This document shows, in pieces, positions 3,994 to 46,373 of a DNA stretch of 64,000 bases (positions are counted from its first letter, which is position 1; each line of letters opens with the position of its first letter). Under the pieces are notes generated by a model, which saw only the letters and a program-made list of their open reading frames with translations, was not told the DNA's origin and searched no databases. Source of the DNA: Verrucomicrobiota bacterium. GTDB taxonomy: Bacteria; Verrucomicrobiota; Verrucomicrobiia; Opitutales; Opitutaceae. Location of the stretch: positions 31,899 through 95,898 of the forward strand of contig JAUWBF010000003.1 of the NCBI GenBank assembly GCA_030601755.1, read 5' to 3'. The translations under genes and the position numbers were made by a program.

Positions 3994-4126
3994 GGCAAAC
4001 GTCATTGAAGAGGCAACCGCGCGCGCGTCGCAACCGTCGGCGGGTGAAAAATCGCCGCCGCGCCACGGAGTCGTTGCGCGCCCGACGTTGCGGCCCCACC
4101 GACCGCCGGTCACAGTGCGTCCCATC

Positions 4127-5089
4127 ATGACAAACCTGCGCCCGAACATGCACCATCCGTGGGTGATCGGACATAGAGGAGCCTGCGGCCACTGGCCGGA
4201 GAACACGCTGCCGTCGATTCGCGGCGCGCACGTGCTCGGCGTGGACTGGGTGGAGATCGACGCGGTGCTCACGCGCGACGGGGTGGTCGCGCTCTCCCAC
4301 GATCTTTGGCTCGACGCGGTGACCGACGTGGCCGCGCGTTTCCCGGGACGCGCGCGGGCCGACGGGCGCACCTACGCGGCCGACCTCGACTGGGCCGAGG
4401 TGCAAACGCTGCGGGTCGGCGCGCGGCGCGACGAGGCGACCGGCGCGCCCGTCTTCCCCTCGCGACGGTTGGAGGGCGCGGGCGAGACCGGGCTCTGCCG
4501 GCTGCGCGACGCGGTGGCCGCGTTGCGCGAACTCAACGCCGCCGACGGGCACCGCGCCTGCCGCCGCGTCGGGCTCGTCGTCGAGGCGAAGTTTCCCGCT
4601 TGGCACGCCGCGCGCGGGTTGGACCTCGCGGCGGCGATTCGCGCCGAGCTGGCCGACGCGGGCGACCTGCCGTTGGTCATCGAGACGTTTGACCCGCACG
4701 CGTTGCGCGCCTGGTGTCAACGCGCGGACGAGTGGCCCGAGGCCGGGCGCTGGGGCTGGTGGCAATTGCTGGGCGAAAACGCCTGGGGCGAGGCCGATTG
4801 CGACTATGACGAGCTGCGCACGGCGGACGGTCTGCGGCGCATCGCGGGCTGGGCGGACGGCGTGGCGATCAACCTCGAGCGGGCCACGCCGGATTTTTCC
4901 GCGGCGGCGCGCGCGGCCGGTCTGGCCGTGTTCGCCTACACGGCGCGGGCCGAGTCGGCGGACGGCGGATTGCCCGCGGCGTTGGTGGGCGGCGGGTTGG
5001 ACGGCATTTTCGCGGACCAGCCGGAGATCGCGCTGCGTTGGCGGTCGGAGTGGGCAAACGCCAAGGGTTTGCAGGCGCGGAAAATGTAA
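4127..5089 (+). CDS. glycerophosphodiester phosphodiesterase family protein
   Basis: ORF 3992..5089. ATG at 4127 gives MTNLRPNMHHPWVIGHRGACGHWPENTLPSIRGA...VDWVEIDAVLTRDGVVALSHD, the GDPD signature HRG...PENT...E.D. Confidence 0.75.
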   Translation: MTNLRPNMHHPWVIGHRGACGHWPENTLPSIRGAHVLGVDWVEIDAVLTRDGVVALSHDLWLDAVTDVAARFPGRARADGRTYAADLDWAEVQTLRVGARRDEATGAPVFPSRRLEGAGETGLCRLRDAVAALRELNAADGHRACRRVGLVVEAKFPAWHAARGLDLAAAIRAELADAGDLPLVIETFDPHALRAWCQRADEWPEAGRWGWWQLLGENAWGEADCDYDELRTADGLRRIAGWADGVAINLERATPDFSAAARAAGLAVFAYTARAESADGGLPAALVGGGLDGIFADQPEIALRWRSEWANAKGLQARKM

Positions 5090-5160
5090 AAACCTTTCGC
5101 TTCCCCTCCGCGGACGGCTTGGCGTAAAACCAGCAGCTCCGTCTTCCTGTATAAATAACC

Positions 5161-6696
5161 ATGTCCGTCCGTCGTTTAGCCTTGGTCCGGTGTTTTCTGT
5201 GCGTGTCGCTCTTCGGCGTGTTGCCGGCGGCGGCCGCCATCGAACGCGTCGAGGTCAACTTCGACCACGTGCGCCGGCTCGCGGCGGAGCGCGCTCGGGA
5301 GCCCTACCGCTCCACGTCCGGCGACCTGCCCAAGGGGCTCGCCAAGCTCACCCGCATGGAGGAGCTGGGCATCCGCTTCCGTCCGGGCGGGGAGATCTGG
5401 GGCGGTGACGGGCTGCCCTTCAACCTCGAGCTGCTCCACCGCGGGCCGTTGCGGCCCGAGGCGATGACGGTGCGCGAGTTCAGCGCGACGCATGAGCAGA
5501 CGATCCCGTTTTCCAAAAACTTCTTCGAATACGGCGACGCCGGCCGGGTGGGGTGGCTGCGCTCCTCGCTCAATTTCGCCGGCGTGCGGGTGCGGGCGGC
5601 GATCAACCGCCCGGACGCCTACGACGAGTGGCTGACGTTTGTCGCCGGTGCCTGGCGCGCCATCGGCTCGGGTCAGGCACCCGGCGCGTGGGCCAAGGGC
5701 CTCGCGGTCGACGCCGGCGTGCCCGGCATTACCGAGGAAAGCCCGCTGTTTACCGACGTCTGGCTGGGCAAGCCCGAGCCGGGCGCGCGGCGGTTGACGG
5801 TCTACGCGTTGCTCGACACGCCGAGCCTGACCGGCGCGTATCAATTCCACGTCACCCCCGGCGCCCGCACGACCGCCGAGGTGCGCGTCGAGCTGTATTT
5901 CCGAAAAAACGTGGCGCAGGTCGGCTTCGCGCCGCTGACCACGTCCTTCTGGTATGGCGAAAACACCCCGCGCCCCCCGGGCCTGCTCTGGCCGGAGCGG
6001 CACGACTCGGACGGCCTGCTCGTGCGCACCCGCGGCCAGGCCCCGCTCTGGCGTCCGCTCGGCAACCCCGCCGGCGTGCAACGCAGCGAGTTGACCGTGC
6101 CGGCGCTGGAGGGCTTCGGGCTTTTGCAACGCGACCGCGACCCCGCGCACTATCAGGACCTCGACGTCGCCTTTCACCAAAAACCCTCGGTCTGGATCGA
6201 GCCGGTCGGGAACTGGGGCGCGGGCTCCGTCCGCCTGATCGAGTTGCCCAATCCCCGCGGCGCGGACCGCAACATCATCGCCTTCTGGGTGCCGGCCGCG
6301 CCGCCCGACATCACCCGTCCCGTGCCCATCGCCTACCGCGTGACCTGGGGCGAACCCGAGGCCGCCGCCTATGCGCGCCTCGCGCGGGTCGTTTCCACCC
6401 GCTCCGGCGTGCCGCCGGGCGCGGGCGAGGCGGGCGGACGCGTGCGGCTCTTCTGGGTGGATTTCCAAGGCGAGGCCGTGGCCGGCTTGCAAGACCCCGA
6501 GGTGACGGCGCACGTCGACGCGCGTTACGGCCGAGTGCTCGCCCACCGCCTCGTGCGCAATCCCGGCCTGCCCGGCTGGCGCGTCGAGATCGAGGTCGAG
6601 GCCGACGAGGGCGCGCGCCTGGTGGAATTGAGCTGTCAGTTGCGCCGCGGTTATGAAGCATTGAGCGAAAGCTGGACCACGCCATGGATTCCCTGA
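5161..6696 (+). CDS. opgG: periplasmic glucan biosynthesis protein, OpgG/OpgD (MdoG) family
   Basis: 511-aa ORF with a signal peptide (MSVRRLALVRCFLCVSLFGVLPAAAA). Size and sequence are typical of MdoG, and opgH lies downstream. Confidence 0.85.
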   Translation: MSVRRLALVRCFLCVSLFGVLPAAAAIERVEVNFDHVRRLAAERAREPYRSTSGDLPKGLAKLTRMEELGIRFRPGGEIWGGDGLPFNLELLHRGPLRPEAMTVREFSATHEQTIPFSKNFFEYGDAGRVGWLRSSLNFAGVRVRAAINRPDAYDEWLTFVAGAWRAIGSGQAPGAWAKGLAVDAGVPGITEESPLFTDVWLGKPEPGARRLTVYALLDTPSLTGAYQFHVTPGARTTAEVRVELYFRKNVAQVGFAPLTTSFWYGENTPRPPGLLWPERHDSDGLLVRTRGQAPLWRPLGNPAGVQRSELTVPALEGFGLLQRDRDPAHYQDLDVAFHQKPSVWIEPVGNWGAGSVRLIELPNPRGADRNIIAFWVPAAPPDITRPVPIAYRVTWGEPEAAAYARLARVVSTRSGVPPGAGEAGGRVRLFWVDFQGEAVAGLQDPEVTAHVDARYGRVLAHRLVRNPGLPGWRVEIEVEADEGARLVELSCQLRRGYEALSESWTTPWIP

Positions 6697-17293: not shown

Positions 17294-17378
17294 GCCCGGG
17301 TGGTGGAATTGGCAGACACGCCAGACTTAGGATCTGGTGCCGAAAGGCGTGCAGGTTCGACCCCTGTCCCGGGCACCA
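17294..17378 (+). tRNA. tRNA-Leu (anticodon TAG)
   Basis: GCCCGGG acceptor stem pairs with CCCGGGC, followed by A-CCA. Anticodon stem CCAGA/TCTGG with loop CTTAGGA. Long variable arm TGCCGAAAGGCGT. T-arm GCAGGTTCGACCCCTGT. Confidence 0.9.
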
Positions 17379-31864: not shown

Positions 31865-31967
31865 CGGCGCGCGCGGGCCGATCGACCGTTCGCGCGTCCG
31901 GCCAAGTTTAACCCGCGTCCCGTTTGACCTCGGGAACAGATCGGGCTCCTTGTGGCTCATAAATTTT

Positions 31968-37179: not shown

Positions 37180-38013
37180 TCAGCGGCGCTTCACCACCCA
37201 GAACTCCGCTCCCTGCGGGTCGGCGAGGCGGGCGCTGTCGCCGAGGCCGTCGCGCTCCGCGGGCTCGAGGATCTGCCGGCCGCCCGCGGCGACCGCGCGC
37301 GCCACCGAGCGGCGCACGTCCTCGACCTCGATGCACGGCAACCACCCGGGCGACGTATTCGCATCGGCATGACGCAGTTCGGCGACGGCGTGCTTGGCGA
37401 CCACCGCCCGCGCGTCCGGCGCGTCGGGCGCGGCGCGCTCGACCGTCCAGCCGGCCACGGTTTGGTAGAAGGCGTCGATGTTGTCGCGCGGCAGCGTCTC
37501 GCCGACGTGCCAGAGGATCGGCGGGACCGCGACGTAGGGTTGGCGGATGTGCAGTTGCACGAGGCCCAGGCGCGCCTGGCCCGGGCCGGCGACCTCGACC
37601 ACGCGGCCGATGAGGTGCTCGCGCGGGGGACGGACGACGAGGCCGCCGGTCCCCAGCGCCTGGTCGGCGACGAGGTCGGCGTCGAGCACCTGCACCCAGC
37701 ACGTCCAGCGCGCCGGACCCTCGTCGGAGGTGAAGCCGGCGAAGAGTTTTCCGCCGTGGCTGAGCATCACGTAGGGCTGCTCGCCGGGCGACGTCACGGG
37801 CGCGCGCACGATTTTCCAATCGAAGACCGAGGCGTAGAACTTCGCGGACGCCTCGGGCGCGGCCGACACGATCTCGTGCCACACGAACTGTCCCTCGGGC
37901 AGGAATTTTTGGCCGGCCTTCTGGCGAGGCGCCTCGGCTTGCAACCCCGCGGACATCGGCAGGAACAGGCAGGCGGCGAGGGCGAGGCGCGGGAAAACCG
38001 TGGAGAGAGGCAT
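37180..38013 (-). CDS. secreted two-domain VOC (glyoxalase/bleomycin-resistance fold) family protein
   Basis: ATG at 38013 gives MPLSTVFPRLALAACLFLPMSAGLQAE (signal peptide). Then FVWHEIVS...FYASVFDWKI and a second similar half (FYQTVAGWTV...LADPQGAEFWVV). Confidence 0.6.
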   Translation of the reverse strand: MPLSTVFPRLALAACLFLPMSAGLQAEAPRQKAGQKFLPEGQFVWHEIVSAAPEASAKFYASVFDWKIVRAPVTSPGEQPYVMLSHGGKLFAGFTSDEGPARWTCWVQVLDADLVADQALGTGGLVVRPPREHLIGRVVEVAGPGQARLGLVQLHIRQPYVAVPPILWHVGETLPRDNIDAFYQTVAGWTVERAAPDAPDARAVVAKHAVAELRHADANTSPGWLPCIEVEDVRRSVARAVAAGGRQILEPAERDGLGDSARLADPQGAEFWVVKRR

Positions 38014-38119
38014 GGTCGCGGAGGTTGACGCAAATCCGCGCAAAGGGAAGGCCGGTCGGCGGCTCCGGCGGCAAAACACGCTGGACCGCCGCGGGCGCGG
38101 CCCCGAAAGTGCGCGACCG

Positions 38120-38863
38120 ATGAAGCGCCCGAATTTCAGCGAACTGACCCCGTTTCAATTCGTCATCCTGGTGCTGTCGCTGTTCGTGCTCGGCGTGATC
38201 GCGCTGGAGCTGTTCGTCGACCTGCCGCCGGAGACGGTGCGGGTGTTGACGTGGATCGACAACGCGGTGTGCACGGTGTTCTTCGTGGACTTCGTGATCC
38301 GGTTTCGCGTGGCCGAATCGAAGCTGCGCTTCATGAAGTGGGGCTGGATCGACCTGCTGGCCAGCGTGCCGGCGGTGGAGGCGTTGCGCTGGGCGCGGCT
38401 TTTTCGCATCATCCGCATCCTGCGGTTGCTGCGCGCGGTGCGTTCGCTGCGGGCGTTGCTGGAGATCTTGTTTCGCAGCCGCACGGGCGGCGGCGTGGCC
38501 TCGGTGTCGATGATCACGTTCCTGGTGCTGGCCCTGAGCTCGGCGGGCATCCTGGTCGCGGAACATTCGGAGCGCTCCAACATCAAGACTGCGGAGGACG
38601 CGGTGTGGTGGAGCATCACGACGATCACCACGGTTGGTTACGGCGACCTGTATCCGGTGACGGCGTCGGGCCGCTTGATCGCCGGCGTGCTGATGTTTTG
38701 CGGCGTGGGTCTGTTCGGCACGCTCAGCGGCGTGATCGCGGGCTTTTTCCTGGGCGGCGGCAAACGCGAGCCCGACGCTGCCGAGGAACTCCGCGCCCTG
38801 CGCCAGGAGGTGGAGGCTCTGCGCGCTGAGCGCGGGAACGGCGGCCGGGCAGGGGAGGGCTGA
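38120..38863 (+). CDS. voltage-gated-type potassium channel
   Basis: S4-like RLFRIIRILRLLRAVRSLR and the selectivity filter TTVGYGD. ATG at 38120, within ORF 38000..38863. Confidence 0.85.
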   Translation: MKRPNFSELTPFQFVILVLSLFVLGVIALELFVDLPPETVRVLTWIDNAVCTVFFVDFVIRFRVAESKLRFMKWGWIDLLASVPAVEALRWARLFRIIRILRLLRAVRSLRALLEILFRSRTGGGVASVSMITFLVLALSSAGILVAEHSERSNIKTAEDAVWWSITTITTVGYGDLYPVTASGRLIAGVLMFCGVGLFGTLSGVIAGFFLGGGKREPDAAEELRALRQEVEALRAERGNGGRAGEG

Positions 38864-38901
38864 GGGTGGCGGCGTTTGGCCGTGGACGCTTGGGGTAAGA
38901 A

Positions 38902-39175
38902 TTTTAACGCGAAGCCGCGGAGGCGCAAAGCGGCGCAAGGGGGGATGGTCCGGACGAGTTGAGTAATCCGCATGGCACGCTGTATTCAGGCCTTAACCAC
39001 CGTCGACACAGACGGGCGCGGATTGACCGGCTGGTATCCGTGATAATCCGTGCGATCCGTGGTCAAAACCTTGGTTTAAAAGTCCCGGACTAAGGGGGCG
39101 GCCAAAGGAGGACCGCAACCTTCGGCTGCATCACAGGGCCAGTCTGATGATGAACCCTTTGCCTCGCGGTTCTTG
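38902..39175. repeat. REP family 1 copy with degenerate partner arm; interior carries ATCCGTG x3
   Basis: 38902-38945 is TTTTAACGCGAAGCCGCGGAGGCGCAAAGCGGCGCAAGGGG. ATCCGTG occurs at 39036, 39046 and 39055. A degenerate opposite arm, CCCTTTGCCTCGCGGTTCTTGC, lies near 39150. Confidence 0.5.
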
Positions 39176-39743
39176 CACGATGTCGCGCAGCTCTTGCACG
39201 ATGTCGCGCGGGTAATGCGCGGTGTCGTGCTGTTCGTGCATGGTATCGTGCGGTTCGTGAGCGATGTCGTGCAGTTCGTGCGCAGTGTGGTGCAGTTCGT
39301 GCACGGTATTTGCGCAGGGCGTCGAGCAGGCGTTCGCCGAATTTCTTTTGCAGGACGACGTTGGTGCGGGTGTGGGCCTTGATTTCGTCGCGCAGGAGTT
39401 TTTCGAGCAACTCCACCGCGAGGTTCTTTTGCGGCATGGCGCGCACGTCTTCCAAAAACTCTTTCGAGAGCAGGCCGATGTTGGGCTTCTTCAGGCCGGC
39501 GAGGGCGAAGATGTCTTCCACGCCTTCGGAGACGACGGCGTTGTCGAGGATGCGGCGGAGGGCGGAGTGTTTTTCGGCCTCGGTGAGTTTCTTGTCCACC
39601 GTGGTGTATTTCACGATGGCGGCTTTCACCGCGCCGAAGAAAGCGATCTCGGTGCGCAGCTCCTCCGCCTCGTCGAGCGTGCCGCAGAGGGCGAAGGCGC
39701 GGGTGATGGCGATGACGAGGTCGAGGAAACGCTGCCGCTCAGT
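39090..39743 (-). pseudogene. hsdR: type I restriction enzyme HsdR, C-terminal fragment only
   Basis: Minus frame directly after the TGA at 39744-39746: TERQRFLDLVIAITRAFALCGTLDEAEELRTEIAFFGAVKAAIVKYTTVDKKLTEAEKHSALRRILDNAVVSEGVEDIFALAGLKKPNIGLLSKEFLEDVRAMPQKNLAVELLEKLLRDEIKAHTRTNVVLQKKFGERLLDALRKY. This is the HsdR C-terminal (DUF3387-like) region. It has no helicase or nuclease part and runs into a repeat array below 39306. Confidence 0.75.
39165..39305. repeat. degenerate 21-bp tandem repeat, about 7 units
   Basis: Units include cgcgcagctcttgcacgatgt / cgcgcgggtaatgcgcggtgt / cgtgctgttcgtgcatggtat / cgtgcggttcgtgagcgatgt / cgtgcagttcgtgcgcagtgt... They translate as (ARTARHR)n in the hsdR frame. 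Confidence 0.75.
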
Positions 39744-40871
39744 TCACTTTGGGTTCAGAACCAGCATCATCTCTTTCGCATGTTGTCGCGCCGCACGCCC
39801 ACCTTCATCTGCGCGGCCATCGCCTGTTCCGCCTAGTGTGCTAAACCTGCTGGATACCTGCGTTTCGCCAACGTGGAAGTGTTTACTCGCGATCTCCCTG
39901 ACTGTGGTGCCTGAAAGGCCATTGGAGCACTCATGATCCGGAAAGGTTAGGATTGCTCGTGCACTTCGGGAAGCGACGGTCTCAAGCAGGTTATCAAGCG
40001 CGCCCGGTGATTCAGAACCAACACTATATTTTGAACGTGGACGCAGCTCCGGTGCTGGGTAGCGACCGATGCCGGAAACTTCGCCGCATGAACCTTGCGC
40101 GATCGTTTCCAAAACATGATAGAACCGGCTGTAATGAACACCCGAATACGGGGGGTCGATGAATGCAAGGTCTCCCTCCTCAAGGCGAGTTGCCGCCTCA
40201 TTCGCATCGGCAACTTCAGCTCGTCCTTGCTGCTGAGCGCATAGAATCCCGATGGATTCGAATGCGTTGTGAGTCTTCTGCACGATATCCCTGTTCCAAG
40301 CTTCGGCCAAATACCGCTTCGATGTTTTCGTCGGTTGGAATGGCTGGGCGGTATGCCCTGGAGCTGCGGCGCACTGACTTGCGGCGTGAATGACCGCGGC
40401 GAGCGCGACTGTTCGTGAAGGTTCCCTTTCAGGCAGCTTTGCGCATAACGCGTCAATCCACACAGCTTGCTTCGCGCTAAAGTAATGGCCACCGTATGCT
40501 TTCGTAATGGGTAGTTCCGACTGAGCGCTGCACCATTTGCGACACGCCGAAACGGACGCAATGGTGACCTTGGTCGTGTCCGGAACCCCGAGCCTTTTTA
40601 CAAGTGATTCAGCTCGTCTCTTCCAAGCGGGAAAGAAGGCATTTGGATCAAGCGCCTCCTGCCGGTGGATCACAGCTCCAGCAAGAACGGCACTGTAAGC
40701 TTGGAGATCAAAAGCCAATGAGGGAATATTGAATCGGCAGGCTACATGAACTGACACGGCGGCCGAACCCGCGAAGAGGTCAATGAAACGGCGGGACTTG
40801 GGAACCTCTCGGCCGAGCAATTCGCCCAGTCCGTTGCCAAGCATAGCTCGCTTTGATCCCATATACTTCAT
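39744..40871 (-). CDS. DNA methyltransferase, Dam-like (D12 class; FxGxxxV and DPPY motifs)
   Basis: MKYMGSKRAMLGNGL...RFIDLFAGSAAVSVHV...LAFIDPPYSGVHYSRFY. AT-richer than the flanks. Its ATG overlaps the upstream ORF's stop (ATGA at 40868-40871). Confidence 0.65.
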   Translation of the reverse strand: MKYMGSKRAMLGNGLGELLGREVPKSRRFIDLFAGSAAVSVHVACRFNIPSLAFDLQAYSAVLAGAVIHRQEALDPNAFFPAWKRRAESLVKRLGVPDTTKVTIASVSACRKWCSAQSELPITKAYGGHYFSAKQAVWIDALCAKLPEREPSRTVALAAVIHAASQCAAAPGHTAQPFQPTKTSKRYLAEAWNRDIVQKTHNAFESIGILCAQQQGRAEVADANEAATRLEEGDLAFIDPPYSGVHYSRFYHVLETIAQGSCGEVSGIGRYPAPELRPRSKYSVGSESPGALDNLLETVASRSARAILTFPDHECSNGLSGTTVREIASKHFHVGETQVSSRFSTLGGTGDGRADEGGRAARQHAKEMMLVLNPK

Positions 40872-41507
40872 AATCCAATCCCCCACAAACCTACGCGCTC
40901 AAGCTCGTCAATCACAGCGAGGGCTGAACTCTCACTCGTCCGAAAACTGCGTATGTGGTTCTGGTCTCCCGTTAAGACCCAAAGTTCAATGTCCTCAATG
41001 GCTTTTTCGACATCCAACCAAAGGCTTTGAGGGTCGTCTGGTTCATTACCGTCATCCCAAAGTGCGAGTTCGGCCCCAAGATTGTGCCACCAGAAATGCA
41101 ATCGTGTCTTTTCAACTCCAGAATTGATAAGGAGCTGCCGAGACGCGCCAGTCGCGAGGCGAAGAAGCATCAACGCTCTCGCTAGCATCCCGAGTTGGGG
41201 CGAAGACGCATCGGAGGTTGAATCGCTATTCACTTTGCTGATGACCAAGCTAGCCATTCCGGACATAGTCGGCGATCTCAACGGATCGCTTCTCGTCGTG
41301 CCTTCGTTGAATCCCGAACTGTCGATTGCGGGCTGAATCATTTTGGAGAGTCCGCCGATAAATACCGCAAAGCGCTCTGAGATGCTTGGCGTTCATCGTG
41401 AACATGAAAAACCGTGGTTGCGGCTTCTTCCTTCCGAGCTTAGCGTCGAACTCGACTTCATCCCATTCGGGTAACCATTGCTTTACTGGAATCGCGGGTA
41501 TTTGCAT
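40868..41507 (-). pseudogene. DndB/DGQHR-like N-terminal fragment (ORF 41250..41507) plus overlapping ORF 40868..41341: either a frameshifted gene or two small coupled genes
   Basis: ORF1: MQIPAIPVKQW...PRFFMFTMNAKHLRALCGIY...FGIQRRHDEKRSVEIADYVRNG, then TAG. ORF2, in another frame, continues ...MASLVISKVNSDS...LLINSGVE...LWVLTGDQNHIRSF. The family call is weak. Confidence 0.3.
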
Positions 41508-41520
41508 AAACGGGAGCGGG

Positions 41521-41716
41521 TTAATTCAGCGTGTAGTTGTAGAAGAGCTGGCCCGGGAGGGCGAGCATGCACTCGAGGGGGGGCGGCCTCGACGAGGGCG
41601 CCTCGGATTTCGCCTTCGCCCTTGGTGTTGGACGACATGGAGCCGTTGGCGAGCAGCAGGGCCATGGAGCTGTGCTGGGCGAGGTGCTCGTGGTTGACGA
41701 TGGTATCGGTGCGCAC
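41521..41716 (-). pseudogene. hsdM: hsdM 3' fragment (second copy), frameshifted and truncated
   Basis: ...HLAQHSSMALLLANGSMSSNTKGEGEIRGALVEA. After a run of C, a shifted frame reads LECMLALPGQLFYNYTLN, then a stop at 41521. Confidence 0.7.
41604..41686. repeat. 83-bp direct repeat, copy A (hsdM-derived)
   Basis: Matches 42871-42953 with 5 mismatches by my hand alignment. Confidence 0.85.
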
Positions 41717-41718
41717 GA

Positions 41719-42828
41719 CTAAAATTCCACGGTGATGTCGTGACCGAACTTCAGACCTGCGACTTCGGCGGCGAGCCGAATAATGGTCTTTTTGAGGACG
41801 TTATTGAGATTGGTGGCAACCAGCCAGCCGCCTAGCAGTTCGGCGCGCATCTCGCGAAGGTCTTCGCGGTCGGGATAAAGTTCTTCGGGTGTGCGTGCGA
41901 TGTAGCGCCGCTTGCGTCCCTGCGCGTCGGGATGCTGCGAGCACCGCTCGAGAAAGGTCGGGTCTAGTTTGCCGAGTTCGCGGAGAACCAAGAGCATCGC
42001 GTCCTTGGCGTTTTGGTAGGCGAAGACTTTTCCTCGGATCGTGAGATTTCCCCGGCGAGAGGTTTCTGCGATGGCACGGTCAGCAGGCATTGGGCGGGAA
42101 GGAGTTTCCCGTGAAGGCGCGGTAGATGCGGTGGGGGCGGGGCGTGAAGGCTGCAGCGGATATGATTGGCCCAATCCTGCAAGGAACTCGGCAACGTCAT
42201 CCTCGTCGGGGCGGATGCCTGCGCGTGACTCAACCGCGTTAGTTAGAATCTCAACAAGTAGCTCGTCGCCTTTTTCGACGAGATCACGCCATGCGAGAGG
42301 GATCGCCGCCTTTGCTTGCGATTGTCGATTTCGATTACGGTATTCGGCACGGGCGGTTTCGAGGGCTTGGCCCGATTGAATGCCGTGCGGGGAAAGATAA
42401 CGTTGGAGGGCGGCTGCAGCTTCGGCCGTGGGGCGTTCGTAGAGGTCGAGTTTATAGACGCGACGATCCTCATAGCTGCCTTGTTCAGCGGGAAGGTAGA
42501 AACTCCACGTTCTGCCGTCGGTGAGCACGACAAACGGAACGCCGGTGTGGAATGCGTATTCGAGCGCTTGGCGCACAGCGTCTTCGGCTTTGCCCGGCTG
42601 CTTAACCTCAAAGAAAACGGATGGCTTGGTCGGGGGATGACATAGGGCAAAATCGACGCGCCCTTCGCCGGTCTGATATTCGGGCCACACGACGTTTGTA
42701 TCCCAAGTATCCCAGCCGAGTTCTTGGAAAATACGGAGGACGATGCCCTGGGAGATCGCCTGTTCGTTGGGGAATCGGCCTTGGCGGAGACGTGCGGTGA
42801 TGTCGGCTAGAGTTGTATCTAGAGGCAT
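41719..42828 (-). CDS. PD-(D/E)xK nuclease-like protein (HsdR_N-type N-domain) with unknown C-terminal domain
   Basis: ATG at 42828: MPLDTTLADITARLRQGRFPNEQAISQGIVLRIFQELGWDTWDTNVVWPEYQTGEGRVDFALCHPPTKPSVFFEVKQPG...VVLTDGRTWSFY (D...EVK motif). The C-terminal ~130 aa has no recognised domain. Confidence 0.6.
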   Translation of the reverse strand: MPLDTTLADITARLRQGRFPNEQAISQGIVLRIFQELGWDTWDTNVVWPEYQTGEGRVDFALCHPPTKPSVFFEVKQPGKAEDAVRQALEYAFHTGVPFVVLTDGRTWSFYLPAEQGSYEDRRVYKLDLYERPTAEAAAALQRYLSPHGIQSGQALETARAEYRNRNRQSQAKAAIPLAWRDLVEKGDELLVEILTNAVESRAGIRPDEDDVAEFLAGLGQSYPLQPSRPAPTASTAPSRETPSRPMPADRAIAETSRRGNLTIRGKVFAYQNAKDAMLLVLRELGKLDPTFLERCSQHPDAQGRKRRYIARTPEELYPDREDLREMRAELLGGWLVATNLNNVLKKTIIRLAAEVAGLKFGHDITVEF

Positions 42829-42833
42829 GGCGG

Positions 42834-44213
42834 TTAGGCAGCGAGAGGGGGCTTGAGCAGAGTCGAGTTTCGGATATCGCCTTCGCCTTTGGTGTTGGAC
42901 GACATGGAGCCGTTGGCCAGCAGCAGGGCCATGGAGCCGTGCGGGGCGAGGTGGTGGAGCATGTGCTGCACCCAGGCGAAGTTGGCGTTGCTCTTGGGCG
43001 GCGTGCCGTAGGCCCAGCGCGGGTCGCCTTCCAGCCGGCCGTCCCACCATTCGCTGATGTTGAAGTGCGGATTGGCCATCAGTTGTCCTTTACTGCGCGC
43101 AGGACCCGCAAAATGCGATTTGTCGTTGGAGATCGCGCTTCCGCGCGGGGCGGTGTCGGCGTGGAGGTCGGGGTGCTGGTCGGAGAGGAAGGTGTCGGCG
43201 GGTTGTTTGCCGAAATTAAAGTCGATGCCGCGGATGGCCATGTTCATCGCGGCGAGGCGCCAGGTGGTGGGGTTGCTTTGTTTCGGCCTCGTGAAATTCG
43301 GCCTCCCCCTGCGGGCACGCTTGGCGCGACCAAACGGACGCCCGGTCCGTTTGCCCTGGCCGTAAACGGAGATCGCGCCGAGCCGGCCGCCGTGGGCCTC
43401 GATGAAGGCCTCGCTCTGGACGAAGAAGCCGCCGGAGCCCATGGCGGGGTCGTAAACCTTGCCGGAGTAGGGCTCGAGCATCTCGACGATGACGGAGACG
43501 ATGCTCTTGGGCGTGTAGTATTGGCCGCCCTTCTTGCCCTCGGCCAAGGCGAACTGGCCGAGGAAGTATTCGTAAACGTGGCCGAGGATGTCCTTGGCGT
43601 TGAGGCTGGCGTGGCGGAAGGGGATGGAGGAGACGACTTCGCTGATGAGGCCGACGAGCTTGGCGGGCTCGATCTGGAGCTGCATGTAGCGGTTTTTCTC
43701 GATGACGCCCTTTAGCCGGGGGTTTTCCTTTTCGACGGCTTCGAGGGCGTCGTCGATGAGGCGGGCGGCAGAGCGGAAGGTGTATCCCGCGCCGTCGGCG
43801 AGGGTGAGGGCGGTGTCGGGCGCGAGCGGGGCGCTGTCGCGGATGGTTTTCCAGCGGGCGAGAGGCGGGACCCAGAAGACGTTTTGCGCGGTGTAGTAGT
43901 CGCGGTCTTCGAGTTCGTCGGCGATGGCGGCGGCGTAGGCGGCGTCGGTCTTGTGGTCGGCGCGGTCGAGAAAGTAGTCGCTCTGCGGGTCGCGGAAGGC
44001 GGCTTCGAGCTCTTCGCGGCGGAGGTCGAAGGCGTCGGAGACGTATTTGAGGAAGATGAGGCCGAGGACGGCGTGCTTGTAGACGGCGGCGTCGAGATTG
44101 GAGCGGAGGCGGTCGGCGGCGTTCCAGAGCTTCTTGTCGAGGTCGGCGAGGAATTGCTGTTCCTCCTCGTTCGTGGTCGTGCGGGCGGGGGTCTGCGCTT
44201 TCGAATCAGCCAT
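42834..44213 (-). pseudogene. hsdM: type I R-M methyltransferase HsdM, C-terminally truncated, with two in-frame insertions and an altered motif IV
   Basis: N-terminus LWNAADRLRSNLDAAVYKHAVLGLIFLKYVSD, then GGQYYTPKSIV and DPAMGSGGFF. YGQ-[25 aa]-QSNPTTWRLAAMNMAIRG. HAD-[24 aa]-LMANPHFN (NPPF changed to NPHF). Ends ...GEGDIRNSTLLKPPLAA at the insertion junction. Confidence 0.7.
42871..42953. repeat. 83-bp direct repeat, copy B (inside hsdM)
   Basis: See 41604-41686. Confidence 0.85.
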
Positions 44214-44457
44214 GCGTAAAGCGTTTGTGAACAAGCGGACGCTCTTGGCAAGGGCGGAGGAGGGGACGGACTAAGTATGAAGTTTGAAGGAAGAAGGGGC
44301 GGACGAAGCGGCGGGAGGGCGGGGGAAAGTCGCAGGTCGAAGGTCTGAAGGTCGAAGGAGCGAGAGGTGGACTGAAGACCGAGGGACGGACGGAGGGCGA
44401 CGAGGGAACAAAGGCGGAGGCAGGCAGGATGCCTGCGCTACTTGGGGCGGTGTGCCT

Positions 44458-44555
44458 AGGTGGACGCGGACGTCCCCGGCCGCGTCGGTTTGGCGGTGGT
44501 TCGCGCGTTATGTGGGATGACGGGGCAGACGCGGCCCGGAGGTCCGCGTCCACCT
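44458..44555. repeat. long inverted repeat (about 28-bp arms, 41-nt loop)
   Basis: Left arm AGGTGGACGCGGACGTCCCCGGCCGCGTC (44458-44486). Right arm GACGCGGCCCGGAGGTCCGCGTCCACCT (44528-44555). A REP family 2 half-site, GGCAGGCAGGATGCCTGCGCTAC, lies at 44419-44441. Confidence 0.8.
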
Positions 44556-44720
44556 CGGGCAGGCATGTCGGATGTAAGGATCCGGGGGCGGGGTGAGGAG
44601 GTCGGGCTGGGGAGTCAACATCGGGGCGTAAAGCCCCTCCTACCGTTCGATCATCCGCGAACCTTCGTGGGATCCGCGGTGAAAAAATGTCCGTTCACCG
44701 GCGCGCCGCCCCGGCGCCCC

Positions 44721-46373
44721 TCAGCTGTCCGGCGAGAAGCGGGCGATGGCGGCGATCTGGTCGGCGATGTCGCGGTCGCCGCGGCAGCGGGGCATCTTGT
44801 TTTGACCGCCCCACTTGCCGGTCTCGCGCATCCAATGTTCGAATACACCGGGCATCACCAGGCGCACGACGGGCTCGGTGAGGCCGCCGCCCTTGCGCTT
44901 GGCCTCGTAGTCGTCGTTGAGGCGTTGCAGCTCGGCGTCGAGTTCGGCGGCGAGCACGGGACCGGTGGGCGTTTCGACCGAGAGGGGTTTGAGCTCGACC
45001 CACCATTCGTGGTGGCCGCGGCGGGCGCCGGCGATCGCGTTGACGAAGACGGGGGCGACGTGGAAGTTGACGACCTTCCACTTGTGGCGCTGGCAGACGA
45101 TGGTGAGCGCGTCGGTGAGTTCCTTCTCGATGACGTGCTCGCCGAAGGCGCTGAGCTGGAGCTTGGTGCGGCCGGCGTAGACGAGACGGGGCACGTCGGT
45201 GGAAACGAAGCGCACGATGTCGCCGATGATGTAGCGGCAGAGGCCGGCGGGCGTGCTCATGACGAGGGCGTAGTCGACGCCGGGCTTGACGCCGGCGAGG
45301 GGCACGGCGCGGGCGCCGAGCAGGCCGAGGCGGTCCTCATGGTAGTCGTCCATGGGGAGAAACTCGTAGTGAATGCCGGCGTCGCACATGAGGCGTAGGC
45401 CGAGCGCGGAGTCGGCGTCTTGCGCGGCGATGAAGCCTTCGGAGGCGGGGTAAACCTCGTGGAAGTTGACGGTGGGCCCGCAGACGGCGCGCAGTTCGTC
45501 GGCGAAGGGGGCGATGGGCACGCCGCCGTGGATGAGGCACTCGAAGTTGGGCCAGAGGGCCTGGAGGTTGACCGGGCGGTGTTTTCCCTTGGCGCCGGCC
45601 TTTAGCAACTCCTCGGCGAGGATGAGGATCCAACTGGGGATGCCGGCGAGCAGGGTGATGTCGCGCCGCAGGGTGCGTTGCACGATGGCCGCGATCTTGG
45701 CGGGCCAGTCGGTCATCTGGGCGATGTCGGAGCCGGGTTCGTAGATGTGTTTCTCGATCCAGTCGGGGAGGTTGAGGGCGGTGATGCCGCTGAGGTCGCC
45801 GGCGTAGCTCTGGTGGCCGTCGGGCGAGGGGGCCATGGGGGTGAGCGAGGTGGCGCCGCCGAGGAAGAGGTGTTTGCCGTGGAAGACGCCGGTGTGGCCG
45901 ACGCGGGCGGTGTAGTAGAGGAGGGAGTCGAGGCCGGCCTTGCGGAAGTGCTCCAGCATGGCGTCGGTGATGGGCAGGTATTTGGTGCGGCCGGCGGTGG
46001 TGCCGGACGAGACCGCGTAGAAGTTGCAACGACCGGGCCAGAGCACGTTGGCCTCGCCGGTCTTCATGCGCTCGATCCAGGGGATGTAGCCTTCGTAGGC
46101 GCGCAGGGGCACGCGTTCGCGGAACTTTTCGTAGGGCAGGTTTTTCTCAAGGCCGTTCTCGCGGCCGAAGGCGGTGTCCTGCTGGGCGGCGAGCAGGGTC
46201 TTCAGCTGCTTGTGCTGGGCGGCGTGGTCCGAGGAGCCGTTGCGCAGTCGCCGGGCGGTGCGGGTGGTGAGGAAACTCGCTCCCAGGGTGACCAGACTTT
46301 TCGGCGGCGTCAGCATCTTGCGTGGACGCTGAACAGGCAGCAACCCGACTGGCGGTGCGGCAAGTGAATTCAT
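44721..46373 (-). CDS. GH3 (auxin-responsive promoter) family acyl-adenylate-forming enzyme-like protein
   Basis: 550 aa: ...FRERVPLRAYEGYIPWIERM..GE.NVLWPG...FYAVSSGTTAGRTKYLPIT... Its ATG overlaps the stop of the upstream hydrolase gene (ATGA at 46370-46373). Confidence 0.8.
   Translation of the reverse strand: MNSLAAPPVGLLPVQRPRKMLTPPKSLVTLGASFLTTRTARRLRNGSSDHAAQHKQLKTLLAAQQDTAFGRENGLEKNLPYEKFRERVPLRAYEGYIPWIERMKTGEANVLWPGRCNFYAVSSGTTAGRTKYLPITDAMLEHFRKAGLDSLLYYTARVGHTGVFHGKHLFLGGATSLTPMAPSPDGHQSYAGDLSGITALNLPDWIEKHIYEPGSDIAQMTDWPAKIAAIVQRTLRRDITLLAGIPSWILILAEELLKAGAKGKHRPVNLQALWPNFECLIHGGVPIAPFADELRAVCGPTVNFHEVYPASEGFIAAQDADSALGLRLMCDAGIHYEFLPMDDYHEDRLGLLGARAVPLAGVKPGVDYALVMSTPAGLCRYIIGDIVRFVSTDVPRLVYAGRTKLQLSAFGEHVIEKELTDALTIVCQRHKWKVVNFHVAPVFVNAIAGARRGHHEWWVELKPLSVETPTGPVLAAELDAELQRLNDDYEAKRKGGGLTEPVVRLVMPGVFEHWMRETGKWGGQNKMPRCRGDRDIADQIAAIARFSPDS

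Follow-up and report, generated by a model that had tools for sequence, protein, structure and literature searches.

Genes are often found embedded in type I restriction-modification (R-M) operons (PMC11411939; bioRxiv 10.1101/2024.01.29.577857). In embedded defence genes such as PrrC, or TgvAB of Vibrio cholerae VPI-2 (“guilt-by-embedding”; Payne et al., 2024), foreign genes lie between or inside hsdM, hsdS, and hsdR, the type I system is functional and the cargo sits between intact genes. Here, we describe an island of related make-up in a 64,000-nt stretch of contig JAUWBF010000003.1 from an Opitutaceae member of the Verrucomicrobiota (GCA_030601755.1, contig positions 31,899 to 95,898; hereafter “the window,” to which all unprefixed coordinates refer). 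The island (38864–44720, genes on the minus strand) lies between convergent genes for a K+ channel and a GH3-like protein. As in the described cases, foreign genes have entered a type I operon; in contrast to them, the insertions cut into both hsdM and hsdR, no hsdS is left and the host system no longer works. We consider it probable that the island is the relic of a horizontally acquired hsdM-hsdS-(embedded genes)-hsdR operon that was dismantled by serial recombination and is now dead, and that two of its genes, encoding a nuclease (nuc) and a DNA methyltransferase, are functional.

A first-pass annotation, made from the sequence alone, had placed a degraded type I R-M locus, lacking mobility genes, between the K+ channel and GH3-like genes, and had listed a damaged hsdM, a nuclease-like gene, an AT-richer methyltransferase gene and a 21-bp tandem array, with hsdS and the helicase and nuclease part of hsdR gone. 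All of these features were recovered in our analysis; other parts of that description had to be amended, as set out below.

Remains of a Type I Operon

An intact version of the operon is found in the related loci L175 and L176, which encode HsdM (579 aa), HsdS (474 aa), an AAA_13 protein (773 aa), a Lactamase_B protein (453 aa), and HsdR (1049 aa). The AAA_13 and Lactamase_B pair lies between hsdS and hsdR, as in known embedded-gene operons (PMC11411939; 10.1101/2024.01.29.577857). The hsdM and hsdR pieces of the window are collinear with this operon, and the comparison recovers an ancestral hsdM-hsdS-(embedded genes)-hsdR arrangement, ~8 kb of which (L175 11245–19225) is replaced in the window by a 1.8-kb cassette remnant. 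Since the L175 system adjoins genes for a tyrosine recombinase, a MobA/MobL relaxase and TrbI (L175 1–9711), it appears to reside on an integrative mobilisable or conjugative element. This setting suggests how the type I system may have reached the genome of the window; judged by gene content, the type I family concerned appears normally to travel on integrative or mobilisable elements and already to tolerate embedded genes.

The larger of the two hsdM pieces (42871–44234) is a pseudogene that retains codons 1 to ~397 of ~556. It is placed in the HsdM family by homology: HsdM_N (PF12161, 75.5 bits) and N6_Mtase (PF02384, 198.8 bits) both score above cut-off (E 1.7e-58), PADLOC reports MTase_I (E 1.3e-96), the M subunit in PDB entry 3KHK matches with an E of 1e-135, and the sequence is 80–92% identical to HsdM proteins of 556–600 aa. 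At the nucleotide level, identity is 94.7–96.7% to L174 and 90–97% (~92% overall) to L175. The damage is extensive. The catalytic motif NPPF is changed to NPHF, two in-frame inserts (ins1 and ins2) are present, the reading frame stops at codon ~397, and the ~160 codons of the C-terminal part have either been moved or are missing. Both inserts and NPHF are private to the window copy, being missing from 13 close homologs (469–636 aa). The dN/dS ratio of hsdM is 0.37 to the nearest relative, compared with 0.24 between two intact relatives.

A second piece, hsdM′ (41536–41708), was described in the first-pass annotation as a 3′ fragment. A second fragment is indeed present, but it comes from the middle of the gene, where it covers codons ~363–413 of 556; one of its C-runs carries a +1 frameshift. 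It repeats ~117 nt of the first piece (42871–42987), as aligned with the intact genes of L174 and L175, and the core of this direct repeat comprises 84 nt at 94% identity. The fragment runs on to ...PGQLFYNYT, so that after the frameshift the frame ends again at codon ~413. It matches PADLOC MTase_I at positions 313–346 and is 87% identical to L175 at the nucleotide level.

The surviving hsdR piece (39297–39743) begins directly after the stop codon of the methyltransferase gene. It had been taken for the last ~145 codons of the gene and proved instead to be an internal piece of the C-terminal region, codons ~778–922 of 1049, the final ~127 codons being missing from the window. It matches T1RH-like_C (E 6e-51, positions 63–210 of 329) and PADLOC REase_I (positions 759–904 of 1029), and it is 91.7% identical in nucleotides to L175 19225–19636. 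When the L175 HsdR was searched against the whole window by tblastn, only residues ~780–926 of 1049 were matched. The piece ends at Tyr922 (39297–39322; L175 19636–19649), and locus L172 (1571–1709) keeps hsdR from this same codon onward, with breakpoints within ~4 nt. Because the two breakpoints coincide, they hint at a shared ancestral insertion at Tyr922. Ahead of its break, L172 carries an N-terminal fragment (72 codons) of an unassigned gene that has a GYLYQ motif.

Neither hsdS nor an integrase or relaxase gave a tblastn match anywhere in the window (L175 queries, and also HsdS of L174), and there is no transposase gene in these 64 kb. The DNA of the island is fully accounted for by parts other than hsdS. 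Type I R-M function has been lost: HsdM carries the lesions listed above, HsdS is absent, and the nuclease and superfamily 2 (SF2) helicase domains of HsdR are missing.

A Conserved Nuclease Gene Between Two hsdM Pieces

The gene nuc (41719–42828) separates the two hsdM pieces and encodes an intact 369-aa protein with an N-terminal PD-(D/E)xK domain, a disordered linker, and a C-terminal domain of putatively SeqA-like fold. Matches to HSDR_N (30.7 bits) and HSDR_N_2 (25.2 bits) are above cut-off, PDDEXK_9 matches too, and D59, E74, and K76 are invariant in 32 sequences. More than 1500 homologs were detected at E<=0.001; the 120 listed are 70–91% identical and nearly all are ~365 aa long. Homologs are annotated by JGI as “predicted type IV restriction endonuclease,” and sequence-level searches of PADLOC, NCBIfam, and the PDB gave no match for nuc. 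Its dN/dS is 0.05–0.08, and that of the methyltransferase is 0.086 (against its homolog in L090); by this measure both genes are under purifying selection.

An AlphaFold2 (AF2) model of the protein has an overall predicted local distance difference test (pLDDT) value of 73.5, with 85–94 in the C-terminal domain. In Foldseek searches, the N-terminal domain resembles the nuclease domains of type II/IIG enzymes and of HsdR, and the C-terminal domain resembles the DNA-binding domain of SeqA (prob 1.0, E 9e-3, rmsd 2.1 Å over 88 columns), with no match at the sequence level. A similar-sized phage “HsdR N-terminal domain” protein was also found (E 6e-7). The combination of a PD-(D/E)xK domain bearing D...ExK with a separate C-terminal domain of DNA-binding type is like that of type IV enzymes (Mrr, DpnI-like logic); unlike in these enzymes, the putative reader resembles SeqA at the fold level only, and nuc is a candidate drawn from sequence and model. 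Most probably, nuc encodes a stand-alone nuclease that depends on DNA modification (type IV-like) and in which a PD-(D/E)xK domain would be joined to a SeqA-like DNA-reading domain, a prediction we offer as a lead only.

The way in which nuc is joined to hsdM is reproduced in other loci. A leader of ~40 nt (42829–42870) closes the truncated hsdM frame with ...PPLAA and a stop, and the ATG of nuc follows 6 nt later. Homologous leaders (...ALAA, stop, 6 nt, ATG) occur in L081, L096, L097, L103, L105, L106, L108, L135, and L172, relative to which (cf. L108) the window leader has a 60-nt deletion. Within the clade nearest to the window, the leader comes after an hsdM cut at ...PGQLF in every case (eight loci), and L088 is an hsdR-fused derivative. 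Similarity of nuc DNA between contexts spans exactly the open reading frame (ORF). In L172, which comes from an independent sample, nuc is 91% identical in protein and the same hsdM-leader-nuc-hsdM′ layout is found, the second hsdM copy being more decayed. In L096 (4022–5995), a KilA-N gene directly upstream of nuc lies between two overlapping hsdM pieces. Because L172 and L096 show it too, cargo between duplicated hsdM segments appears to be a recurring outcome.

These comparisons also bear on whether the mosaic is in part an assembly artefact, in which reads from different type I loci of a metagenome were joined into a chimera. The sequence is from a 98-kb contig, hsdM sequences of this family are strongly conserved from one organism to another, and a repeat of 84–117 nt could mislead an assembler. 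However, the hsdM and hsdR pieces are collinear and in the order of an intact operon, L172 reproduces the nuc junctions from a different sample, the remaining junctions share no repeats able to cause a mis-join, and ins1, ins2, and the point changes are unlike assembly errors. We therefore regard an artefact as very improbable.

A different account would make nuc the agent of the decay, as a selfish, homing-like or “compatibility-selected” nuclease that lands in R-M genes, especially methyltransferase genes, and whose insertion killed the type I system; nuc would then be no bystander. The module has ORF-precise limits and a ~40-nt leader that closes the upstream frame, and it sits behind truncated hsdM in 10 loci, behind an hsdR fragment in L088, and behind a cut helicase in L130 (~4060–5890), where the helicase ends past motif VI (Helicase_C, E 1.4e-6). 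In L112 (372–1750), L126, L162 (5412–6700), and L119, nuc is nested between short remnants of another, unrelated methyltransferase type, with DPPF upstream and ERIIK.SS.EG.LV.DF.CGS downstream. In these four loci and L130, the leader ends the upstream frame with ...(I/L)(A/G)A and a stop ~6 nt before the ATG. Should the putative reader domain recognise N6-methyladenine (m6A), a surviving insertion would be one that inactivates a resident m6A methylase. Yet most nuc contexts are without R-M remnants, its varied neighbours including fumarase subunit genes, ornithine carbamoyltransferase (OTCase), YceI, PIN, KilA-N, and a RecQ-like helicase with a DprA-like protein. The R-M-associated cases fall in ~3 clades, so that only ~3 independent events are documented, and the short methyltransferase remnants are below Pfam thresholds (the downstream one matches PF01555 with an E of 0.0026, below cut-off). 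No pair of empty and filled alleles was found for nuc, duplication of hsdM is atypical of homing, and an intact D12 m6A methylase adjoins nuc in the window. Compared with a free-standing homing endonuclease gene, nuc has the ORF-precise limits and recurs inside R-M genes in ~3 clades, most of its contexts being unrelated. Overall, we judge it unlikely that nuc killed the system. A more specific version seems distinctly doubtful as well, namely that nuc is a mobile methylation-reading module (ORF plus 40-nt leader) preferentially inserting into and inactivating R-M genes; that it has inserted at least twice inside methyltransferase genes of unrelated families; and that the ~75-nt mini-elements described below, seen only in two nuc-associated hsdM genes, belong to the same process.

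The sole recurrent partners of nuc are the RecQ-like helicase, the DprA-like protein, KilA-N, and hsdM remnants. Recurrent neighbour clusters were considered as a signal and set aside, being mostly duplicate sampling of the same species. A RecQ-like helicase gene (~705 aa) and a DprA-like gene (434 aa) follow nuc in L088 (10001–14518), L096 (6001–10497), and L108 (6001–10497), and in L108 a decayed hsdM stands on one side of the trio and the 3′ part of hsdR on the other. These three genes may form a system.

A Three-Gene Cassette Reduced to Its Methyltransferase

Between hsdM′ and the hsdR piece lies a lower-GC cassette remnant (~39744–41530). Its intact gene (39744–40871) encodes a 375-aa protein, full length against homologs of 375–376 aa and 87% identical in amino acids to that of L090. 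By its match to PF02086 (51.2 bits, cut-off 22) and its legible catalytic (FIDPPYSG, containing DPPY) and S-adenosylmethionine (SAM)-binding (DLFAGSAAV, containing FAGSAAV) motifs, it is classed as a D12-class N6-adenine DNA methyltransferase. The first-pass term “Dam-like” is appropriate at the level of this class only, because the Dam equivalog TIGR00571 gives 22.6 bits against a cut-off of 114.85.

Two stumps precede the methyltransferase gene. The first (41253–41507) holds codons 1–85 of a ~509-codon gene of the putative DGQHR (DndB/DpdB-like) family; it is 88% identical in amino acids to L090 codons 1–85 and matches TIGR03187 with an E of 1.5e-6 (28.1 bits, below the cut-off of 58.85). 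Intact DGQHR homologs carry VIDGQHRLWAF, score 18.5–20.6 bits against PF14072 (cut-off 29.1), and match PADLOC DpdB at E 7.7e-5. The second stump (40871–41251) keeps the final 127 codons of the middle gene, which has 444, and is 78% identical in amino acids to L090 residues 318–444; it has no match in Pfam, PADLOC, or NCBIfam. A 2.2-kb internal deletion with its junction at ~41250 joins the two. Of the ORFs that the first-pass annotation took to be intact and possibly active in defence or anti-defence, nuc and the methyltransferase gene are confirmed as intact and under purifying selection (dN/dS 0.05–0.09), and the small ORFs upstream of the latter are stumps of this deletion.

The complete cassette is present in L090 (257–4246), L091 (4908–9128), L177 (3123–7137), and L178–L180. 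In these loci, the gene ends touch or overlap and the products are a DGQHR protein of 509–585 aa, an unassigned protein of 438–444 aa, and a D12 methyltransferase of 372–378 aa. The operon is conserved across phyla, including a metagenome-assembled genome (MAG) of the Baltobacteraceae, and PADLOC 2.0 has no model for it beyond the weak DpdB match. We propose it as a candidate for an uncharacterised R-M-like system. The methyltransferase is intact, as first described, but it is no stand-alone novelty, being what is left of a conserved operon of three genes. The cassette edges in the window are tight, with homology to L090 extending from ~25 nt before the first ATG to the methyltransferase stop. 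An hsdM-like sequence upstream of the L090 cassette (alignment A1) turned out, when the sequence was read, to be a chance MAFFT match.

Because both of its partner genes are destroyed, the methyltransferase is an orphan, and if expressed it is predicted to act as an orphan m6A methylase. It resembles other orphan methyltransferases of decayed R-M systems in being intact and under purifying selection with its partner genes deleted; unlike typical cases, the lost partners are a DGQHR (DndB/DpdB-like) protein and an unassigned 444-aa protein, with no classical restriction endonuclease among them.

An Insertion at a Site That Is Empty in a Relative

The island fills the space between the stop codon of the K+ channel gene (38863, plus strand) and that of the GH3-like gene (44721–44723, minus strand). 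Its GC content is 53–66%, compared with 66–75% in the background on both sides. The GH3-like protein is 80–86% identical to proteins of Opitutaceae MAGs. Among 80 GH3 loci compared, only L001 shares the junction with the K+ channel gene (GH3 80% and K+ channel 75% amino acid identity); there the two stop codons are ~10 nt apart and the site is empty. The closest GH3 relative, L002 (86%), is uninformative for the junction because its contig stops within GH3. None of the island genes was found in any of the 80 loci. Thus, given the ~10-nt spacing in L001 and the absence of island genes from the GH3 loci, the region is an insertion of ~5.8 kb.

The first-pass annotation had read the layering as repeated replacement of defence genes at one hotspot. 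The layering is confirmed, as at least seven rearrangements can be counted (see below). It seems quite improbable to us, however, that the GH3/K+ channel site is a recurrent chromosomal hotspot at which defence genes are swapped in place. Convergent gene ends are a common island location, several foreign layers of differing GC are stacked at this site, and a REP-like element adjoins the island; against this, the one relative that shares the junction is empty, the 80 GH3 loci carry no cargo of the kind found in the island, the hsdM-nuc-hsdM′ layer is present in the separate contig L172, and most breakpoints are inside type I genes and not at chromosomal borders.

The island is likewise unlike integrative mobile elements, whether integrative and conjugative elements (ICE), integrative and mobilisable elements (IME), prophages, or insertion sequences (IS), which would bring an integrase, transposase, or relaxase gene together with att sites or terminal repeats; no such gene is present. 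A repeat search found no flanking direct repeats beyond chance, and a tRNA scan found no tRNA gene in or beside the island, the sole one of the window being at 17294–17378.

Recombination History of the Locus

Compared with an intact operon, the island has undergone at least seven changes: gain of ins1 and of ins2, entry of nuc with its hsdM duplication, the 60-nt leader deletion, the cassette replacement, the 2.2-kb deletion, and the cut of hsdR at Tyr922 with the array. The hsdM′ frameshift and NPHF come on top of these. A type I operon would have landed between two convergent core genes. The nuc module (leader and nuc) would have entered hsdM, duplicating ~117 nt of it, and ~8 kb comprising the 3′ end of hsdM, hsdS, any embedded genes, and the first ~778 hsdR codons would have been swapped for the DGQHR / 444-aa / methyltransferase cassette, which afterwards would have lost 2.2 kb internally. 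A second cut in hsdR would have fallen at Tyr922, and hsdM would have gained two in-frame mini-insertions of ~75 nt, a mutation in its catalytic motif, a 60-nt deletion, and a frameshift.

Most of these recombination events appear to have one end inside type I gene sequence. As hsdM and hsdR of this family are 92–95% identical in DNA between unrelated contigs (for hsdM, the window copy against L174 and L175), they could anchor incoming DNA. We infer that the “sink” for recombination is the conserved type I gene sequence and not a chromosomal site. The events could have proceeded by homology-facilitated illegitimate recombination or by single crossovers with circular intermediates, neither of which would need an integrase or transposase. 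The former reportedly occurs in naturally transformable bacteria, in work said to be that of de Vries and Wackernagel in 2002. The window is like it in its one-sided shared flank, the partial duplication of the anchor, and the lack of mobility genes, a likeness drawn from the junctions only. Some events may predate this genome, because L172 shares the hsdM-nuc-hsdM′ layout.

Several points weigh against our account of a type I operon dismantled by serial recombination with two genes still functional. The recombination mechanism is read from junction anatomy only, and the events, given above in a putative order, may have taken place in this genome or before arrival. The contig belongs to a metagenome or draft assembly, in which the hsdM-nuc-hsdM′ junctions alone have independent support. 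No promoter-like sites were found, so that nuc and the methyltransferase may not be expressed. The likeness to SeqA is a weak assignment, given its Foldseek E value, the lack of sequence support, and an overall predicted template modelling (pTM) score of 0.47. Finally, the intact m6A methyltransferase gene lies 1 kb from the gene of a putative m6A-reading nuclease, and the two enzymes would conflict if they had the same specificity.

Small In-Frame Insertions in hsdM

The two private inserts of hsdM are of similar size. The first, ins1 (43278–43355), is 78 nt long, lies between YGQ and SNPTTW, and can form hairpins with a predicted fold of -29.9 kcal/mol; searches of the window and of ~170 related loci revealed no second copy. 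The second, ins2 (43080–43154), is 75 nt long and lies between DLHAD and MANPHF. Both are also missing from hsdM of L174 and L175. A homolog of ins2, 72 nt long and likewise in frame, sits at another position in the decayed hsdM of L108 (5432–5503), with an alignment z of 9.7 and a score reached by 0 of 5000 shuffles. The two share orientation and frame (TAPRGSA... and TALRGSA...), and both hsdM genes adjoin nuc. Judged by this alignment, ins2 is a member of a small family of insertion elements, of which no other copies were detected in ~1.8 Mb of related DNA. A relationship between ins1 and ins2 was rejected (z about -1 in either orientation). When copies of ins1, ins2, the tandem array, and the flanks were sought in the window, ~170 loci, and 119 HsdM homologs, the ins2/L108 pair and the REP-like core described below were the only ones found.

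Rickettsia palindromic elements (RPEs), which Ogata et al. are said to have described in 2000, are reportedly short palindromes that have entered protein-coding genes without breaking the reading frame. The inserts of the window are like them in being ~75 nt long, hairpin-forming, and frame-keeping, and ins2 has a relative at another hsdM site. In contrast to RPEs, only two related copies (ins2 and the L108 insert) were found in the ~1.8 Mb, and the host hsdM of the window is a pseudogene. Two apparently full-length HsdM proteins also have in-frame inserts (alignment A5, columns 165–205 and 550–592): ...SPSGRGVGGEGAAG... and ...PLGEGLGVRA in P0345, and ...SPTGRGAGGEGAAG... in P0244. Since these resemble translated palindromes of the repetitive extragenic palindromic (REP) type, in-frame palindromic insertions may be tolerated in the HsdM family.

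Tandem Array and Flanking Sequences

A 21-nt tandem array (39169–39307; 6.6 copies, 76% matches in the repeat finder TRF) is joined to the hsdR break. It can be read in one frame (39131–39304, minus strand) as a His/Glu-rich heptad peptide, HELHDIA HEPHDTM HEQHDTA ..., that ends with GKGFIIRLAL and a stop. The idea that the array is a conserved gene was rejected, as an exhaustive HMMER search with the 57-aa heptad ORF returned only repeat proteins at 22–50% identity.

The non-coding left flank (38864–39168, 305 nt) contains three CACGGAT motifs at 39036–39061, a pattern that occurs nowhere else in the window and is present in 2 of 173 related loci. The non-coding right flank (44235–44720) contains a 7-nt microrepeat (44325–44358), an inverted repeat (44455–44475 / 44538–44558), and a REP-like palindromic core (44620–44643). 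This core, GTAGGAG(C/G)GGCTTTACGCC(C/G)CGAT, lies ~100 nt downstream of GH3 in the window and in L036 (6383–6407) and is also present in L050 and L060. The REP elements that had been placed after the array are thus to be amended: like the core, the CACGGAT triplet occurs once in the window, and what recurs in relatives is the core alone, on the GH3 side. Because the core is shared with L036 downstream of GH3, the island probably ends on this side near 44600 instead of 44720, and the DNA beyond ~44600 is probably native intergenic sequence. The right flank does not resemble the DNA that lies upstream of hsdM in either L174 or L175. An Rfam scan of 38000–45500 (E<=1) gave no match, and terminator-like sites are fewer than in shuffles.

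Conclusion

Overall, the island documents the decay and overwriting of a type I R-M operon, an ordinary and unsurprising kind of defence-island decay that is useful for defence-island annotation in the Verrucomicrobiota. Its by-products could be of wider interest. The nuc family is widespread, highly conserved and solitary, has a possible SeqA-like reader, and has no model in defence databases. The compact DGQHR / unassigned / D12-methyltransferase operon, conserved across phyla and not in PADLOC 2.0, could matter more, and the small in-frame insertion elements in hsdM genes are a further by-product of potential importance. For the type I systems themselves, the locus suggests that conserved hsd sequence, instead of a chromosomal att site, can be the landing pad for new cargo, by a mechanism that would follow from the anatomy of the junctions.

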